Below are positions 42,597 through 56,162 of a stretch of DNA of 64,000 nt, one piece after another. Origin of the DNA: Channa argus (lineage: Eukaryota); contig NC_090205.1 of assembly GCF_033026475.1 (NCBI RefSeq), positions 5,973,544 to 6,037,543 on the forward strand. Reading direction: 5' to 3'. Made by a program: the position numbers and the translations under genes. Below the pieces are notes generated by a model that was given only the letters and a program-made list of their open reading frames with translations, did no database searches and had not been told where the DNA came from. The stretch's first letter is position 1; the number at the start of each line of letters is the position of its first letter.

Positions 42597-44202
42597 CATT
42601 TTGCTGAGCTGACAATCCAGTTTCCAGTAATACCCCTGCGACCCGAACCTGTCTTAAACACAACAACTCCACAAGACCAGCACTGTGAGGATTTTTCTAT
42701 TATTGTTATAAAAAATTCTGAGTTTTTAATCATAATATTAAACAGTCTTCACAACTAAAACACTTTTCACTTTGCACCTTTTGAGCGGCAGTGGTAAAAA
42801 TAACCGCTCATTTTATGCCCCAAAATTAAAGAGAACTAGAGCAAGAAGACATTTATCATTACAGTATGTGAATTACTGAAGTCTCCAGTAACTCACTGTT
42901 ACATTAAACACCCAGATTGTCATTGATGTGAAAGCTTTCCTACTGTCAGCTGCTCACACACACACACAAAATCAGTGACCTGGTTTCTCAAGTGCATGTA
43001 AATATAGAGAAAGGTGGTAATGCAATGAATCAGGTACAAAACTGCCTTTCACTGCAGCATTATAGACTGTAAGTTCATACAGAAGATGATGCACTCAGCT
43101 TCTGGCTGTGTACGTCAAATAAGATATAACCAGCTCAGGAAATGGTTGGTCTTTTAGTTTTAGTTTTATCTTATGTTAGTTTATCTTTTCTGGAACTGGC
43201 TGAAAGAAACTGTTTTACAGAAAGAAGAAACGCTTAACCACCTTTAAATATAGTGTATGTGCTTTGACGACATTTCATGAGTTTTGGAAATTTGAACAAA
43301 ATAGTATGTTGTTTGCATTTTTGCTTCTTCTTATTCTTTGGATTTTACACAAATGAGCACCTTCTTCAATAATACTTTTGAATAACTTCATATGTTAATG
43401 TTTGGCAACTGCTGGAGTACTGTGACCAACTGGAGACCAGAGGTTTGTTCATTTTAAGAAAGAAGTTACAGAGTTGGTGAAAATCTGCTAAATGTAATTA
43501 TTAGTTAGTTGGTGTTATTAGATGATCTTTGGAATGGTCGATATTTTTGGTGTGTGATCACAAACCAAATCAAACTTTCCTAAAATGTTAAAGTGCCTTA
43601 ATCCTTATTGTGTTTATTATCATCTTTGATTGTTAAGAAAACTTTTTTCCCCTTTTAGCTGCACTTTTATGCTGTTTTTATTAAACCTGTCAATAAAAAC
43701 TCAATAACTGATCAATGTGGTTACAGTATGTCCCTTGGCTCAGTAAGTTGACAATGAGTTTAATTTGAAGAAATGTTAAAGATATTAGATACAAAAAACA
43801 CAATTCACCAAGTGCATGTGTCAACAAAGATGCAAGTTAATAATTAACATGGTTTAGATGTGCTAGGATCTATTGAAAGCAAAAGAGGCCAACGTGCAAT
43901 TGAAATCTGAAGTTCTACTTTATATAATAATCATATTAGTTTAAGTAAAAAACTGATATTTAAAAAACATTTTAGACATTAGTTTCAGATGTGACTGCCT
44001 TTACACAGATGCAGTGTTTTAAAACTTCGGTTCAGTGCCAGATTATTATCTTGCAAACAGTTTTTGCCACCTCTAAAACTCATGACTTCCTCAGAAGTTG
44101 AAAAGGGGAAATTAAAAGCGTTGGGAGATGAATCGCTCACATATGCTGTAGTTTGAGCTGTAGAGCTGAGCCTTTAGGAAATACGTGGCATTTTTGGATG
44201 TG

Positions 44203-44272
44203 ATGGAGGAAATTTATGTGAATGTCGAACCTCAAAAACATCTGGCCCCGAGACCTTCAACAGATGAGACGG
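44203..44272 (+). CDS. C-type lectin copy A, exon 1 (cytoplasmic tail): MEEIYVNVEPQKHLAPRPSTDET(G).
   Basis: The ATG is at 44203 and the donor is acgg|gtgagt. It is paralogous to 54514-54584 in copy B. It is followed (after the transposon-bearing intron) by a signal-anchor exon. The domain order is that of type II CLEC4-like receptors. Confidence 0.55.
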
Positions 44273-44277
44273 GTGAG

Positions 44278-46831
44278 TCAATATCACCAGAGAGTGCCTT
44301 TCAACCCTCACAATACTCAAATATTTACATTTTAATTTACCATTCACTTTATGTCATGTCATAAATAGTAGACATTCAAGTATATAAGAAATATATTATC
44401 TGAGCTCCCACACTCCCCCATTTTTCAGAGCATATAAATATAAATACATAAAAGATTTTACATAAAACGTGTTTTTAAAGAAACATAATTTGCACATGTA
44501 TTTTATTCTTATTTGGAGAATAAAATTATATTTGGACACAGTTTTTTGTTTGCATGTTATTGCCCCCACACCTAGCTATTGAACAAACTGGATTATATAG
44601 GTATGATTGAATTATTATTTTAAATATTATTTTAAAATATCAAGATGACAGGGTGGATAAGCACACAACGGGGTGGACACATAAAGCACAACACAAAAAG
44701 CATGAGAAAATATGTCAATGGAACAATTATTCAACTTAAAAAAAGAAATGCAAAAATTAAATTCTCAATCACATTCATATAACCAAACATTTAGAACGGC
44801 CTGCTGTGGGGTCATGTCGTCGACTTGGAGAAATGGAGAAGAAGGCCAGAGGTGACTGGTCTTCAGCAGTGTAAAGTGCCCCTGTATGGAGAGTTGTCTG
44901 TTGGTGCGATCCTCCAACGTGGACTGCTTGAATTTCTTGGCTGTATTTGCACAAGTAATTTTCACTATAATCAATATGCAGCATGCACTCATCTGATTTT
45001 AGGGTCTCCCTGATTTTTCTGTAGGCTGTGTATTGCCATCTATATATTACGACTGTGGAGGACATTTGCCATGAGTTGTGTATTCTCATGTGTTTTGCAC
45101 AATCACGTGTTGCGGTCAGCCTCTGTGGGTGTAACAACTTATAATGGCCTAAGCCGGCAAAACATGCTGTATGACAGTTGGCCCTGCTGCTCAGATGTGT
45201 CTGTGAGTCATCTTTTTGCATATTTTTATTTTGTCGTGTGATTATTTGTTAGCAGCCTGGTTTCATACGGCTGACATCATCACGGAGAGAAAAAGACCTC
45301 ACTTCCCTCTTAATCTCCAGAGCTGCACCACTTTCTTTTTTCTTCACGGTTGCACAAAGATCCACACTGAGGGTTACATTTCTTTTTTTGGAGTAGCCAA
45401 ACGCCACTTTGTGTGTACTTCTCAAGTTTGTACTTTTTAAAATACTCCCAGAAGTCACCCTGGCAATCAGTTGTCTTTCTCTCTCAGTTTTTGCGTTTCT
45501 GTATTTTTGCCTGATGTTCTCAACCAGGGTGGTGTGAAATAGCAGGGCTCTCGTAATAGATGCCCTAACTTTTTGGGCTCTTACCAATTCCCTGACTTTT
45601 GAGTGAGGAGACACCGAAGGTTCTTGTCGCTTCATCCTCTGGTACCTCTTTTTGTATTTTTCCACTATTGTCCTGGCTTTAGCTCTGGCAGCTGTCTTTG
45701 CCTCCTTCCATTTTTTCCTTTGTGAACATTTTCCTCTCTGTGTGAGGTCATTAATAGCTTTCTTCTTGCTTGTATCTCTATCTTTTCTCCATCTCTCCCT
45801 TTCTTTCTTAAAGTATGCCTCTCTTTGTTCAGGGTTTGCATCCCGGCGTTTTGTGTATTGCCGTGCACTTTCTGCCGCACTCAGAGGCATGTCCTGAGAA
45901 CAGCAATGACTTTATGTTTTTTTAAATTACAAAACGTTATCTACAGCAGATGTTTTCTATAAAATGTAATATAAAATTTTTTATAAATTACAATATTAAC
46001 TTCAAATGAATGCTATGTCCACCCTGTCATATGTATGTCCACCCTATCGAGTCGAAGGGACCGACAGGGTGGACATTTTGGAACAACGATAGGGTGGACA
46101 TTTTGAGCTTCAATTAGCATATTATCTTACAACAAACTGTGACTATTTAAATAGTTAGTCTGGTTGTTGAAGAGAATTTGGTATATTTAAACTTACATAT
46201 TAAACTTAAATATTGTATTTTACTCACTTCTAGTGTATTTTATGCCGACAGGGTGGACATGTTAAGCTTTGGCAAAACAAGTAAGCGAACTCATATGAAT
46301 AAAATTTGTCATTTGGAAAGTCAGCAGCTCATTCACCTCAGCAGTAGAAATCCTGCCACTAAAGAGATAAAAAATCTGTTGTCCTGATGTCACTAATGGA
46401 GACAGACTTTTCTTAAAGGGGCAGATTCCGCAATACGACAGGGTGGACAACCATTCAAGGGACATGGACAACGCTATTTTTTTATTAAATAAAAATATTG
46501 TTTTTATTACAAAATGATCAATACACTAAATTTGAGTAATATCTTATTTAACAAAATATTAATAGGAAAACATTTTATTTTATTTTTATGATTTTATTCT
46601 CATTCAAATTTAATGAGCGGTGCCTGGGACATAGCAAAATAACACACATCCTTTTATACAAAACAAAAAAATATCTTGAAAATGTATCTAAAGAGCCAAG
46701 TAATGCTTCTGTTATGAATAAGAAACTTACCCTAATACAACACACCCTGTCATAGTCATTTGTATGTTAAGTTATCATGGCAAATGACTTATTTATGTTC
46801 AGGACACCAAAAGGCACAGTGATATTGATTT
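44278..46831 (-). mobile_element. ~2.56-kb DNA-transposon insertion with 10-bp terminal inverted repeats TCAATATCAC, in intron 1 of lectin copy A. It carries a frameshifted transposase-like gene on the minus strand and internal GGGTGGACA repeats.
   Basis: The left end is gag|TCAATATCACcag and the right end is cacaGTGATATTGA|tttg. Both flanks (gatgagacggg ... tttgtttgtttg) are contiguous in the paralogous copy B at ~54580-54600, which therefore acts as an empty site. Minus-strand ORFs 45249..45890 (213 aa, K/R-rich) and 44775..45221 (148 aa, ...HIDYSENYLCKYSQEIQAVHVGGSHQQTTLHTGALY...) are in different frames. There are six or more copies of gtccaccctgtc / gacagggtggac in both orientations at 46017-46450, and one at 44651. 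Confidence 0.65.
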
Positions 46832-46934
46832 GTTTGTTTGGTCAAACAGATGCTCACTGACTGTGCTTTGCCTGAATTTATATCATCAGCTTTCACTGTG
46901 GTATAACTGACTGGATTCATTGGTCTTTGCACAG

Positions 46935-47033
46935 GTTCAAGGAGCTCACAGAGGAGATTTTATGGAGCTCTTCTCTTTTTGGGGCTGTTGAGTGGTTTTC
47001 TTCTCGCTTTTCTCATCAGCCTCGGTGTCCACT
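46935..47033 (+). CDS. C-type lectin copy A, transmembrane (signal-anchor) exon: (G)SRSSQRRFYGALLFLGLLSGFLLAFLISLGVH.
   Basis: Acceptor tttgcacag|gtt, donor ccact|gtgagt. Only one frame gives a ~23-residue hydrophobic helix after basic RR residues. It is conserved in copy B (54692-54790). Confidence 0.6.
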
Positions 47034-47282
47034 GTGAGTTTAGATTTCAGTAGTATTATTAAGTATTATTTTTGCTCTGAAACATTTTTATTTAGGTATT
47101 TTTTGTCTAAGGTAAAAGTGCAGTCGTAGCTTTAGTTTTACTAAAGTTTGGGCGTTTAGACATTTCACATTTTGCATATAGTTGGAACAGATGTTGGAAA
47201 CCTAGAGCAAAACTACAACATATTTTCAATGTATTATGCTTTAGCTATTAGGACTCTAGATGTTTACCTTTTTTCGTTTTAG

Positions 47283-47488
47283 AAACATGTATCCTAAATG
47301 TATTTCAGACCGTGATTCATCACATCGTTTAGCTGCAGAGCTCTCTGCTGTTAAAGCCAATCTGACTGAGCGTTTTCAGGTCAGTGATGGTCAACTTTCC
47401 TTGATGACTGCAGAGAGAGACCAGCTGAATGCCAGCCTCATTGCAATGACTGGAGAGAGGAACAGGCTTCAGAGTTTGTCCAAACAGA
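47283..47488 (+). CDS. C-type lectin copy A, neck (coiled-coil stalk) exon: NMYPKCISDRDSSHRLAAELSAVKANLTERFQVSDGQLSLMTAERDQLNASLIAMTGERNRLQSLSKQ.
   Basis: It lies in ORF 47260..47616. The acceptor is cgttttag|a and the donor is acaga|gtgagtg. The heptad-like pattern matches CD209/CD23-type necks. The phase between the TM exon and this exon does not close directly (see findings). Confidence 0.65.
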
Positions 47489-47735
47489 GTGAGTGCTTTC
47501 CAGTACGTTGGTCTTGTTCCAATAACTTAATTTTGTTTGATTGTGTATTGATTTTTGTATCGTCTCCAATGAGAAACTGCAGTCCTAACAGAGTTTCCCT
47601 TCAGTTTTGGGATTGAGAAAGTTCACATTCTGCATGTAGCTGGAATAGATTTTGGAACCCAAATGAGAACTAGAACATATTTTCAATGCATTATACTTTA
47701 GCTATTATTACTATGAATGTTTACTTTGACTGCAG

Positions 47736-47780
47736 AGAGAGACCAGCTGAATGCCAGGCTTACGAGTTTGTCCAATCAAA
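47736..47780 (+). CDS. C-type lectin copy A, extra 45-nt in-frame neck mini-exon: (K)RDQLNARLTSLSNQ. It arose from a partial duplication of the neck exon and is absent from copy B.
   Basis: It has the acceptor tgactgcag|agagag and the donor tcaaa|gtgagtg, the same donor context as the parent exon. Its 45-nt length preserves phase 1, so inclusion or skipping both keep the frame. The upstream intron segment (ttcaatgcattatactttagctattattactatgaatgtttac) is duplicated with it. Confidence 0.4.
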
Positions 47781-48284
47781 GTGAGTGCCTTTAGTAAAAT
47801 CCTGCAAAATCCTATCATTGATGGACACATGTTCCTTCAATGATAGTTTATCATCCAGCCAGATAGCCAAATACAAGTATGATGATACTTTTTCAATAGT
47901 ATCTCCTCCTTTACTTTGTATTCCTGGATAGTTGATGTCAGCCAAGTGAGCTCTGGTGAAGCTCATATGTCTGGTCTTTTTAACATTAAGGACCAACTTT
48001 ACTTTAGTCAGAGATGACTGGAGCTGTCCAAACCAGACTCATTAACAGCCTAGAGCAGAGAGGGAGTGATTGAGTAAATGACTGTGTGTCATCTGCATAA
48101 AGGCGGATTTTTGCCTTTATAGTAATTTTGACATGTTCTAGATCAGAGCTAATTGGATTCATTGGGCATTGCATAACAAGGGCACTTACATCATGCACGG
48201 AAAATGAACTGGAAGCATATTGTAGCCTCTCAAATAGAAGCTCTGGCCGCTTCTTGAAGTTCTCTCCTTGGAAATATCTTACAG

Positions 48285-53015: not shown

Positions 53016-54513
53016 TAATTCAAAATCGGATTATTGAGTTCACACTTATTTTAGTTTTCTGGCATCAAGGAAATACCATGTGCCTTGTCTCTTACTGCTC
53101 ACACTCACTCTCTCCGTTCAACCTGTCCATCCTGTCCTGGTCTTCAGTCACTTTTAAGAGGCTGGCATTCAGCTGGTCCTTCTCTGCAGTCAAGAAGACA
53201 GTTTGCTCACACACACACACACACACACACAAAATCAGTGACCTGGTTTCTCAAGTGCATGTAAATATAGAGAAAGGTGGTAATGCAATGAATTAACATC
53301 GCTTCAGGTACAAAACTGCCTTTCACTGCAGCATTATAGACTTTAAGTTCATAAAGAAGATGATGCACTGCAGCTTCTGGCTGTGTACGTCAAATAAGAT
53401 ATGACCAGCACAGGAAAGGGTTGGTGTCTTATTTTTAGTTTTATCTTATGTTAGTATCTTTTCTAGAACTGGCTGAAAGAAACTGTTTTACAGAAAGAAG
53501 AAACGCTTAACCACATTTAATGAGTTTTGGAAATTTGAACAAAATACTATTTTGTTTGCGTTTTTGCTTCTTCTTATTCTTTGGTTTTTTACACAAATGA
53601 GCACCTTCTTCAATAATACTTTTGAATAACTTCATATGTTAATGTTTGGCAACAACTGCTGTGACCAACTGGAGACCAGAGGTTTGTTCATTTTAAGAAA
53701 GAAGTTACAGAGTTGGTGAAAATCTGCTAAATGTAATTATTAGTTAGTTGGTGTTATTAGATGATCTTTAGAATGGTCGATATTTTTGGTGTGTGATCAA
53801 AAACCAAATCAAACTTTCCTAAAATTTTCAAGTGCCTTAATCCTTATTGTGTTTATTATCATCTTTGATTGTTAAGAAAACTTTTTGATGCTTAGCTTTT
53901 CTTCTGCCAAGCAGCTGTGCAGCAGCTACTGCTTCGAGGAGAATTTCCCCTTTTAGCTGCACTTTTATGCTGTTTTTATAAAACCTGTCAATAAAAACTC
54001 AATAACTGATCAATGTGGTTACAGTATGTCCCTCGGCTCAGTAAGTTGATGTCTCTTTATTTGACGATCAATCAAATTTGAAAAAATGTGATAGATATTA
54101 CATGCAAAAAAAACACAATTCACTATGTTCATGTGTCAACAAAGATGCAAGTTAATAACATGGTTTAGATGTTTTAGGATGTATGGAAAGCAAAAGAGGC
54201 AAACATGCAATTGAAATCGGAAGTTCTACTTTATGTAATAATCATATTAGTTTAAGTTAAAAAACTGATATTTAAAAAACATTTTAGACATTTGTTTCAG
54301 ATGTGACTCCCTTTACACTGATGCAGTGTTTTAAAACTTAAGTTCAGTGCCAGATTATTATCTTGCAAACAATTTTTGACACCTCTGAAATTTATGACTT
54401 CCTCAGAAGTTTAAAAAGGGAAACTGTAAGCATTGGGAGATTAATCACTCGCATATGCTGCAGTGTGAGCTGCAGAACTGAGTCTTTCACAAATTCGTGG
54501 CATCCTTGGATGT

Positions 54514-54584
54514 GATGGCGGAAATTTGTATGAATGTCGAACCTCAAAACCATTTGGAACAGAGACCTTCAACAGATGAGACGG
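54514..54584 (+). CDS. C-type lectin copy B, exon 1 (cytoplasmic tail): MAEICMNVEPQNHLEQRPSTDET(G). The tyrosine of copy A is replaced by Cys.
   Basis: It is paralogous to 44203-44272 and has the donor acgg|gtttgt. The intron to the TM exon is only ~105 bp because copy B lacks the transposon. Confidence 0.45.
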
Positions 54585-54691
54585 GTTTGTTTGTTTGCTC
54601 AGACAGATGCTCACTGACTGTGCTTTGCCTGAATTTATATCATCAGCTTTCGTTGTGGTATAACTGACTGGATTCATTGGTATTTGCACAG

Positions 54692-54790
54692 GTTCAAGGA
54701 GCTCACAGAGGAGATTTTATGGAGCTCTTCTCTTTTGGGCGCTGTTGAGTCCTTTTCTTGTGGCTTTTCTCATCCGCCTCAGTGTGCACT
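54692..54790 (+). CDS. C-type lectin copy B, TM exon: (G)SRSSQRRFYGALLFWALLSPFLVAFLIRLSVH.
   Basis: It has the same acceptor and donor as copy A and the same frame. Confidence 0.55.
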
Positions 54791-55189
54791 GTGAGTCTAC
54801 ATTTTAGAAGTATAATTATTTTAGTATTATTTTTGCTCTGAAGCATTGTTTTAGGTATATTTTTACTCTTTAATCTAATACCTATTTTCCCAAATGTATG
54901 TTGCTATAAATATACATTTTCCCACCTAGGATAATGGTTGAGGATCAGGAGCATTAACATTTTAATTTTATTATTATTTAGACTGTTTGAGCTCAGGTAC
55001 AGGTTGTGAGGTCAACAACATAAAACCGCAGCCGTAGCAGAGTTTCAATAAACTTTTGGGGTTGAGAAAATTCACATTTTGCATATAGTTGGAACAGATG
55101 TTGGAACCTTAGAGCAAAACTAGAACATATTTTCAATGCAATATACTTTAGCTATTATTACTATGAATGTGTACCTTTTTCTGTTTTAG

Positions 55190-55395
55190 AAACATGTATC
55201 CTAAATGTATTTCCAACCGTGATTCATCACATCGTTTAGCTGCAGAGCTCTCTGCTGTTAAAGCCAAACTGACTGAACGTTTGCAGGCCAGTGATGGTCA
55301 ACTTTCCTTGATGAGTGCAGAGAGAGACCAGCTGAATGCCAGGCTCATCGCAATGACTGAAGAGCGGAACAGGCTTCAGACTTTGTCCAATCAAA
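55190..55395 (+). CDS. C-type lectin copy B, neck exon: NMYPKCISNRDSSHRLAAELSAVKAKLTERLQASDGQLSLMSAERDQLNARLIAMTEERNRLQTLSNQ.
   Basis: It is in frame with ORF 55167..55409. Acceptor ctgttttag|a, donor tcaaa|gtgagtg. Confidence 0.65.
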
Positions 55396-56162
55396 GTGAG
55401 TGTTTTTAGTAAAATCCTAACAGGGAGTTTCTTCAGCAGATGAGACACATGTTCTGTCAATGATAGTTTGTCATCCAGCCAAATAGCTAAACACTTGTAT
55501 GATGATGATGATACTTTTCCAACAGTATCTCCTCCTTTAGTTTGTATTCCTGAATGGTTGATGTCAGCCAAGTGAGCTCTAATGAAGGTCATATGTTTGG
55601 TCTTTTTAACAACCAGACCAAGTTTAATTCTGTCAGTGATGACTGAAGCTCATTAATAGCCTAGAGCAGAGAGGGAGTGATTGAGTAAATGACCTTGTGT
55701 CATCTGCATAAAGACGGATTTTTGCACTGTTCAGGTTTCTCCCAGTGTCATTTAAAAAAAATAAGATAGCAACCAAATAGAAACTTGAGGGATCCCATTA
55801 CAAATTGTCATAAAACCTGACTAATGTCCATCTACAACAACACATCCTACCTGTAAGATAATTTCTAAACCACTGAACGGGCAGATTCGACATGCCAATA
55901 TGTTTGAGTCTGATACTGACCTGTCAAATAGCCTTTAGTCATGAAATAATCCAGGTGTTACACAACCTTTTCCAATATAGTTAAGGCTGATTGATAATAG
56001 TCATTTTGTCATGTTGTAGATCAGAGCTAATTGGATTCATTGGGCATTGCATAACAAGTACACTTACATCATGCACAGAAAATGAACTGGAAACATATTA
56101 TAACCTCTGAAATAGAAGATCTGGCCTCTTCTTGAAGTTCTCTCCTTGGACATATCTTGCAG

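Follow-up and report, generated by a model that had tools for sequence, protein, structure and literature searches.

A probable decayed Sola2 transposon in intron 1 of one of two paralogous C-type lectin genes of Channa argus

The window analysed here, a 64-kb stretch of DNA from Channa argus (northern snakehead), contains two paralogous units that are type II membrane C-type lectin genes, and intron 1 of one of them, copy A, holds about 2.55 kb of DNA that copy B does not have. Very probably this insert is one old copy, with an internal deletion, of a cut-and-paste DNA transposon of the Sola2 superfamily. We regard it as an element because it is present in one lectin copy and absent from the other, and because intact relatives show the same arrangement of TIRs, motif arrays and transposase. 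It adds a copy, or a family, to a kind already known, and the case is one of an ordinary intronic transposon insertion. Its main value is for annotation, together with a modestly interesting motif array that is conserved in fish Sola2 elements.

In both lectin genes a short cytoplasmic tail is encoded by exon 1 and a transmembrane segment by exon 2, followed by a coiled-coil neck. The features that define the insertion site are given below, in positions of the window.

44203-44272, plus strand: exon 1 of lectin copy A, MEEIYVNVEPQKHLAPRPSTDET plus the first base of a Gly codon.
From 46935: exon 2 of lectin copy A, encoding the transmembrane segment.
54575-54597, plus strand: unoccupied site in lectin copy B, with the junction between 54586 and 54587 and the donor GTTTGT.
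48293, 48579 and 48916 in copy A; 56171, 56450 and 56787 in copy B: the CTLD motifs CPTGW, WIGLNDKEVEGTWKWVDG and WNDLSCTASLRWICE, respectively.

Self-BLAST aligned positions 43646-44274 of copy A with 53944-54586 of copy B, and 46829-47104 with 54586-54864. When the flanks in copy A were joined without the insert, a single HSP of 927 columns to copy B was obtained, with 88.35% identity (a divergence of about 11.6% between the copies). The insert comprises 2,555 extra bases at 44275-46828, with an ambiguity of 1 nt; its bounds may equally be written as 44274-46828 or 44275-46829, since one T can be assigned to either junction. Copy B is contiguous at this point, and GATGAGACGGGTTTGTTTGTTTG has there its single occurrence, at 54575-54597. 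These alignments agree with the earlier note on this DNA, which had proposed a transposon in intron 1 of copy A and a preserved empty site in copy B, although the end coordinate that it gave, 46831, overshoots by 2-3 nt. With splice sites read from the sequence, intron 1 extends over 44273-46934 (2,662 bp) in copy A and 54585-54691 (107 bp) in copy B, in keeping with the enlargement from about 105 bp to about 2.66 kb that had been estimated, and the insert accounts for this 25-fold size difference between the paralogous introns.

The extra DNA begins immediately 3' of the donor GT, two bases into intron 1 of copy A, and the element is oriented antisense to the lectin gene. As the terminal GAGT of the element comes right after the intronic GT (44273-74) and occupies positions +3 to +6, the donor of copy A reads GTGAGT and stays consensus-like, the corresponding sequence in copy B being GTTTGT. 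The exons carrying the CTLD motifs of copy A look intact, and an Rfam search of 43500-47500 gave no match. For the lectin gene, the sequence suggests nothing beyond a tolerated antisense intronic insertion.

Within the insert, the following features were recognised.

44275-46828, minus strand: probable decayed non-autonomous Sola2 DNA transposon of 2,554-2,555 bp, with its 5' end at 46828 and its 3' end at 44275.
44275-44301, minus strand: 3' TIR, reading GAGTCAATATCAC-CAGAGA-GTGCCTTT on the plus strand, with GAG belonging to the terminus.
46810-46828, minus strand: 5' TIR, reading AAAGGCAC-A-GTGATATTGA on the plus strand, without the terminal 3 nt and 5 internal nt of the other arm.
46016-46449, no strand assigned: 5' subterminal array of six (C/T)GA(C/T)AGGGTGGACA motifs, at 382-, 572-, 731-, 756-, 782+ and 802+ nt from the 5' end (signs give orientation).
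44647-44679, no strand assigned: 3' subterminal pair GACAGGGTGGATA and ACGGGGTGGACA, at 382 and 402 nt from the 3' end.
44775-45890, minus strand: transposase pseudogene, corresponding by tblastn and protein alignment to residues 6-358 and 462-539 of the 818-aa relative P0038.
45249-45251, minus strand: in-frame TAA that divides the remnant into the two ORFs of the earlier note.
45041-45042, minus strand: breakpoint of a 287-bp internal deletion relative to contig L016, which is 87-95% identical.

The ends of the insert coincide with a 10-bp inverted repeat, TCAATATCAC at 44278-87 and GTGATATTGA at 46819-28. An inverted repeat of at least 10 bp within 4 nt of both ends was found in 0 of 20,000 random window position pairs 2,555 bp apart, so the proposal of about 2.56 kb bounded by 10-bp inverted repeats is borne out. 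If one indel is allowed, the repeat reaches 18 matched bases (TCAATATCAC-CAGAGA-GTGCCTTT versus TCAATATCAC-T-GTGCCTTT). Comparison with the termini of the Parambassis and Sarotherodon relatives shows that the GAG at 44275-77, included in GAGTCAATATCAC, is the true end of the element, and the other end is the one that has lost its last three bases. The Channa 3' terminus is similar to GAGTCATTCCAC and GACTCATTCCAC of Sarotherodon and to GGGCCATTCCACC...GTGCCATTT of Parambassis.

No recognisable 4-bp TSD flanks the element in copy A, where the junctions read GACGGGT followed by GAGTCAAT and ATATTGA followed by TTTGTTTG, in comparison to GACGGGT followed by TTGTTTG in copy B. In short form, GGGT precedes the GAG of one end and TTTG follows the TTGA of the other, and a single T is common to both junctions. 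We infer that the original insertion generated a 4-bp TSD, GGGT, and that 6 bp were subsequently lost at the 46828 junction, namely CTC of the element and GGG of the right TSD copy, so that the shared T was left; the full-length Channa termini would then be GAGTCAATATCAC...GTGATATTGACTC. This is the most economical reading, as one 6-bp deletion would explain at once why the TIR tip and the TSD are missing, the alternative being an aberrant integration. Small deletions clearly occurred at the 5' TIR arm, since five internal bases are missing there too.

Intact relatives were found in other fish. In Parambassis ranga, P0038 is encoded at five places of the assembly, but three of these are repeated assemblies of one locus, so that three loci are independent. 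They have in common a 4,694-bp segment with more than 99.7% identity, which shows the mobility of the family in this species. The segment ends in GGGCCATTCCACCAAATCGGTGCCATTT... and its imperfect complement (TIRs of 28 nt, 86%), and it is flanked by AGAA/AGAA, TTAT/TTAT and AATA/ATTA, the third with a mismatch, which indicates a 4-bp TSD. The full-length fish element is about 4.6-4.7 kb long and has TIRs of about 28 bp, some 380 bp of AT-rich terminal sequence, a bidirectional array of ACAGG-core repeats and one gene with one small intron, encoding a transposase of about 820 aa. The Sarotherodon galilaeus copy (L018) has TIRs and ends in GACTCATTCCACGAAAATGG and GAGTCATTCCACGAGAATGG; a clean TSD was looked for at this locus and none was found. 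No TIRs were detectable at a Cololabis locus (L017), and the P0044 contigs are one transcript-like contig from many samples, without element ends. Self-BLAST and tblastn revealed no second copy of the element within the 64-kb Channa window. The near-identity of the Parambassis copies suggests a Sola2 element that was active recently and might be used for functional work.

The transposase remnant of the Channa element is decayed. Its minus-strand ORFs, 45890-45249 and 45221-44775, had been described as lying in different frames; they are in fact in the same frame, with a single TAA between them. It is the homologous reading that shifts frame, between about 45225 and 45043, a region in which homology is found in another frame only and two further stops occur, and it re-enters the original frame after the 287-bp deletion. 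In blastn, positions 45672-45042 of the window correspond to 313-971 of L016, and 45041-44803 to 1259-1497. Homology to L016 stops at about 44802-44803, where the ORF is truncated at its 3' end, and there is no ORF sequence past residue ~539. Only the first catalytic Asp is retained (in HIDYSENY), the SDG and HGK..D motifs (FFSDGPATQYKQ and FEASHGKGAPDGVGG) being gone. With a stop, a frameshift, an internal deletion, a 3' truncation and the loss of two of the three catalytic residues, the element is dead and non-autonomous. With 100% identity, the longer minus-strand ORF corresponds to the GenBank entry 'hypothetical protein Q8A73_009651 [Channa argus]' (P0001). This entry is a chimeric gene model, annotated with a splice from 50948-50868 to 45893, and its end is a transposon pseudogene. 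Exact-protein look-ups of a 213-aa ORF, of P0001 and of P0041 returned no record.

Besides the TIRs, the element is characterized by repeats near its ends. All seven occurrences of the motif GGGTGGACA in the window, where 0.29 would be expected, fall within the insert. Six of them, with both orientations represented, are at 46016-46449 and the seventh is at 44671; a degenerate GGGTGGATA is present at 44651. A 33-nt inverted repeat made of these motifs (44647-44679 and 46016-46048, 76% complementary) flanks the ORF. Elements of three species were searched with the core A[CT][AG]GG[GA]N[TG]G[AG], which describes ACAGG-core repeats (also written GTAACAGGACTGAG), and 7-9 matches per element were obtained versus 0.2-0.4 in shuffled sequences; the Channa element has 8 versus 0.24. 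Counted from the 5' end, the motifs lie at 382-, 573-, 729-, 744- and 790+ nt in Parambassis and at 392-, 738-, 753- and 798+ nt in Sarotherodon, and a second cluster is found 200-580 nt from the 3' end of the elements (at 382 and 402 nt in Channa). Thus, the repeats at 46017-46450 that had been regarded as subterminal are genuine, as they occupy the same positions as the arrays of two other fish, and their conservation is consistent with the suggested role as transposase-binding sites.

These 13-15-mers keep their layout across Channa, Parambassis and Sarotherodon in spite of drift in their sequence, and the non-coding DNA is otherwise unalignable between these species. Such a fixed arrangement (about 382, 572, 730, 750 and 785-800 nt, with orientation kept) might reflect an architecturally constrained region for transpososome assembly or regulation, co-evolving with the DNA-binding domain of the transposase; judged from sequence comparison, we hold this as a tentative idea, with the balance slightly against it. 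No description of a positionally fixed motif array for Sola2 was found in the literature searched, which did not include Bao et al. 2009, the reference for the Sola superfamily.

The protein encoded by these elements is not recognised by Pfam. A Pfam search, which had been recommended as a check, was run on both remnant ORFs and on four full-length relatives and gave no significant match, and the superfamily was recognised through comparison with Sola2 proteins. A first search for homologues retrieved 25 proteins and a profile built from them 1,321, none with a Pfam domain. The homologues come from many teleosts, sturgeon, chiton, clam and starfish, are mostly 550-900 aa long and are mostly named 'uncharacterized'. 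A search of PDB sequences with the family profile yielded only noise. An AlphaFold2 model was obtained for the full-length relative P0038 from a 46-sequence alignment (mean pLDDT 81.7). Its core, at residues of about 477-623, is modelled as beta-beta-beta-alpha-beta-alpha-beta-alpha, an RNase H fold of the integrase/mariner type. The model predicts a DDD triad on this RNase H-like fold, composed of the invariant D483 on beta1, the near-invariant D566 after beta4 and the invariant D608 at the start of the long helix alpha4. D483 and D566 are 83 residues apart and the next D-to-D distance is 42 residues, too short to accommodate an insertion domain. In the fish family the triad motifs are DFSENY, FFSDG and HGKGAPDG, and the predicted order of the transposase is a K/R-rich helical N-terminus, a Cys-rich region, the DDD core with its RNase H fold and a Tudor/BAH-like C-terminus.

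The earlier note could not place this protein in a named superfamily; hmmsearch, hhalign and BLASTP all assign it to Sola2. When the family profile was compared by hmmsearch with RNase H cores, using the Sola1, Sola2 and Sola3 reference cores of the supplement of Majorek et al. (PMC3985635), Sola2-1_HM of Hydra scored 93 bits (E 3e-30) and the Sola2 protein of S. purpuratus 57 bits, versus 1 bit for Sola3-1_HM and -1.5 bits for Sola1-1_AP. With hhalign, a profile of two amoebozoan Sola2 transposases (DFa-2 and PPa-1, from the supplement of PMC3627910) and the homologue P0133 was matched over 173 columns that include all three motifs (probability 94.5%, E 7.5e-8). The remnant in the window itself (44775-45050) matched the Sola2-1_HM core in BLASTP with an E value of 9e-7. 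A homologue search with Sola2_DFa-2 returned three proteins only, among them P0133, and the inclusion of the latter sharpened the profile comparison. The lack of a Pfam match is shared with established families, as Sola, Zator, Kolobok, Academ, Dada and KDZ are all without a Pfam model (PMC5751038). More than 1,300 clusters of 'uncharacterized' animal proteins, some of them named 'Enolase', are Sola2 transposases that Pfam does not see.

It is likely that the insertion is later than the lectin duplication, with a transposase-mediated integration that would have taken place in copy A after the two copies arose. The transposon could instead have been in intron 1 before the duplication and have been lost from copy B by transposase-mediated excision or by a precise deletion, the site in copy B being a revertant. 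Elements of the cut-and-paste type can in principle be excised, the divergence of about 11.6% between the copies leaves ample time for such an event, and copy A has no intact TSD from which the original target could be established. However, elements with DDE/DDD transposases usually leave footprints when they excise, and copy B shows neither a footprint nor a TSD remnant and is exactly colinear with the flanks of copy A. This course of events would need a footprint-free loss in copy B in addition to the junction deletion in copy A, one event more, and we consider it improbable. No other paralogous exon 1 or intron 1 that could be used as an outgroup was found within the window. As a pair of occupied and empty sites, the two introns could provide a dated marker for the lectin duplication.

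The lack of a canonical TSD in copy A would also fit a history with no transposition at all, in which the 2.55 kb were ancestral intron sequence removed from copy B by an ordinary deletion. Against this, the ends of the segment coincide with an inverted repeat that random position pairs did not reproduce, its left terminus agrees with those found in related elements of other fish, and the arrangement of its interior is like that of the intact, mobile Sola2 elements which sit at unrelated Parambassis loci. As the segment missing from copy B is exactly one transposon, of a family whose mobility is evident in Parambassis, a plain deletion was rejected as very unlikely indeed. The inverted repeat that flanks the ORF, together with outer arms of about 370 bp that are AT-rich and non-coding, could also be seen as a sign of two nested elements, with an ORF-bearing element of 1.4-1.8 kb within GGGTGGACA repeats (about 44647-46048 or 46460) inside a MITE of about 730 bp with outer TCAATATCAC repeats. 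In Parambassis and Sarotherodon, however, the TIRs, the spacer of about 380 bp and the array occur at matching distances as one unit, and the Parambassis element moves whole, which makes such a nested pair hardly credible. The matching layout in intact relatives indicates that the whole 2,555 bp are one element, and a single Sola2 insertion after the duplication is the reading that we retain.

Several other groups of elements resemble the one described here in part. Retroviral integrases and Tc1/mariner transposases are structural neighbours of the modelled core, with a sequence identity of 7-13% and no rve or DDE_3 match in Pfam. Tc1/mariner elements generate a 2-bp TA TSD, unlike the 4 bp of the Parambassis relatives, and their termini also differ. 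Academ/AcademX was considered on account of the 3-4-bp TSD of AcademX, whose large protein carries an XPG nuclease and a Cys8 finger and has its first and second catalytic D 138-192 residues apart (PMC7165386); it was rejected, as the present family has no XPG domain and a D483-D566 spacing of 83 residues. With hAT the element has in common the cut-and-paste type, short TIRs and subterminal repeats. The termini had been compared with the CAG ends of hAT elements, but CAG is internal here and not terminal. There is no TSD of 5-8 bp (no 8-bp duplication in particular), neither the remnant nor the full-length relatives have a hAT domain in Pfam, and the predicted core has no room for an insertion domain; hAT was therefore rejected.

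Sola elements have DDD transposases and 4-bp TSDs (PMC10741241). Sola1 and Sola3 are like the fish family in their RNase H-fold DDD core and in these TSDs, but the profile scores set them apart, so that it is a member of neither. Sola2 corresponds to the RNase H-like family E.12 of Majorek et al. 2014 (PMC3985635), and its transposases are described as having about 888 aa and AT-rich 4-bp TSDs (PMC3627910). With Sola2-1_HM the fish proteins share the core motifs DF(A/S)ENY...EIQS.H, (F/L)F(S/T)DG..QYK and WNFF..SHG; with Sola2 in general they share the predicted DDD core without an insertion domain, the TIRs, the absence of a Pfam model and, in the Parambassis relatives, AT-rich 4-bp TSDs. The fish transposase is slightly shorter, about 820 aa versus 888 aa for Sola2_DFa-2. 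Unlike these, the copy in the window is a dead remnant in which a single catalytic residue is left, one TIR is shortened and a clean TSD is absent. The fish Sola2 lineage may further be set apart by its conserved K/R-rich helical N-terminus, its Tudor/BAH-like C-terminal domain and its ACAGG array with conserved positions.

The GenBank entry that runs into the decayed Sola2 transposon in intron 1 of lectin copy A, 'hypothetical protein Q8A73_009651' (P0001), is a chimeric gene model, in which two minus-strand segments are spliced together:
50948-50868, minus strand: 27-aa exon of Q8A73_009651
45893-45252, minus strand: part of Q8A73_009651 within the decayed Sola2 ORF
The model ends at the premature stop of the transposon. 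Probably, this chimera either arose as an artefact of annotation or represents a transcript that terminates in the TE.

A trace of another transposable element, of LINE type, is found in a downstream intron of lectin copies A and B alike:
47755-48198, minus strand: LINE-like reverse-transcriptase C-terminal fragment, copy A (ORF ...KKTRHMSFTR...YLYLAIWLDDKLSLKEHV)
55370-55725: LINE-like reverse-transcriptase fragment, copy B counterpart
As this fragment is common to both copies, with ~82% identity between them, it is older than the lectin duplication. Additional C-type lectin domain exons, recognized by motif, were observed beyond these two genes:
50559, minus strand: WNDLPCEDSLRWICEQ
52957, minus strand: CPAGW
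58314, minus strand: WIGLSDGDIEGTWKWTDG
Thus, at least four lectin genes are clustered in the window, in mixed orientation.

Among database homologues of the Sola2 transposase, P0020 and P0025 from Dissostichus eleginoides are labelled 'Enolase' by their source annotation; either the name is probably wrong or the gene models are fusions. Another homologue, P0044, is a single 698-aa Sola2 transposase assembled on ~2.4-kb contigs in 20 separate runs from a single sequencing project (contigs L001-L010 from Logan, SRR265965xx runs). Since the contig size is common to many runs, these contigs look transcript-like, and the transposase may thus be expressed in its source species.

A 4,694-bp Sola2 element is present at three independent loci in the genome of Parambassis ranga (L012:6733-11426, plus L011 and L013). 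The three copies share more than 99.7% identity and all code for the same intact 818-aa transposase, which makes this element a candidate for recent activity in a vertebrate. Motif positions were compared among the Channa element (44275-46828, reverse complement), L012:6734-11425 and a Sarotherodon galilaeus locus (L018:3068-7643). The distances of the ACAGG-core motifs from the 5' end are nearly equal in the three fish (~382, 572, 730, 750 and 790); the motif sequence itself varies from species to species, and the non-coding DNA of the three elements is unalignable apart from these positions.
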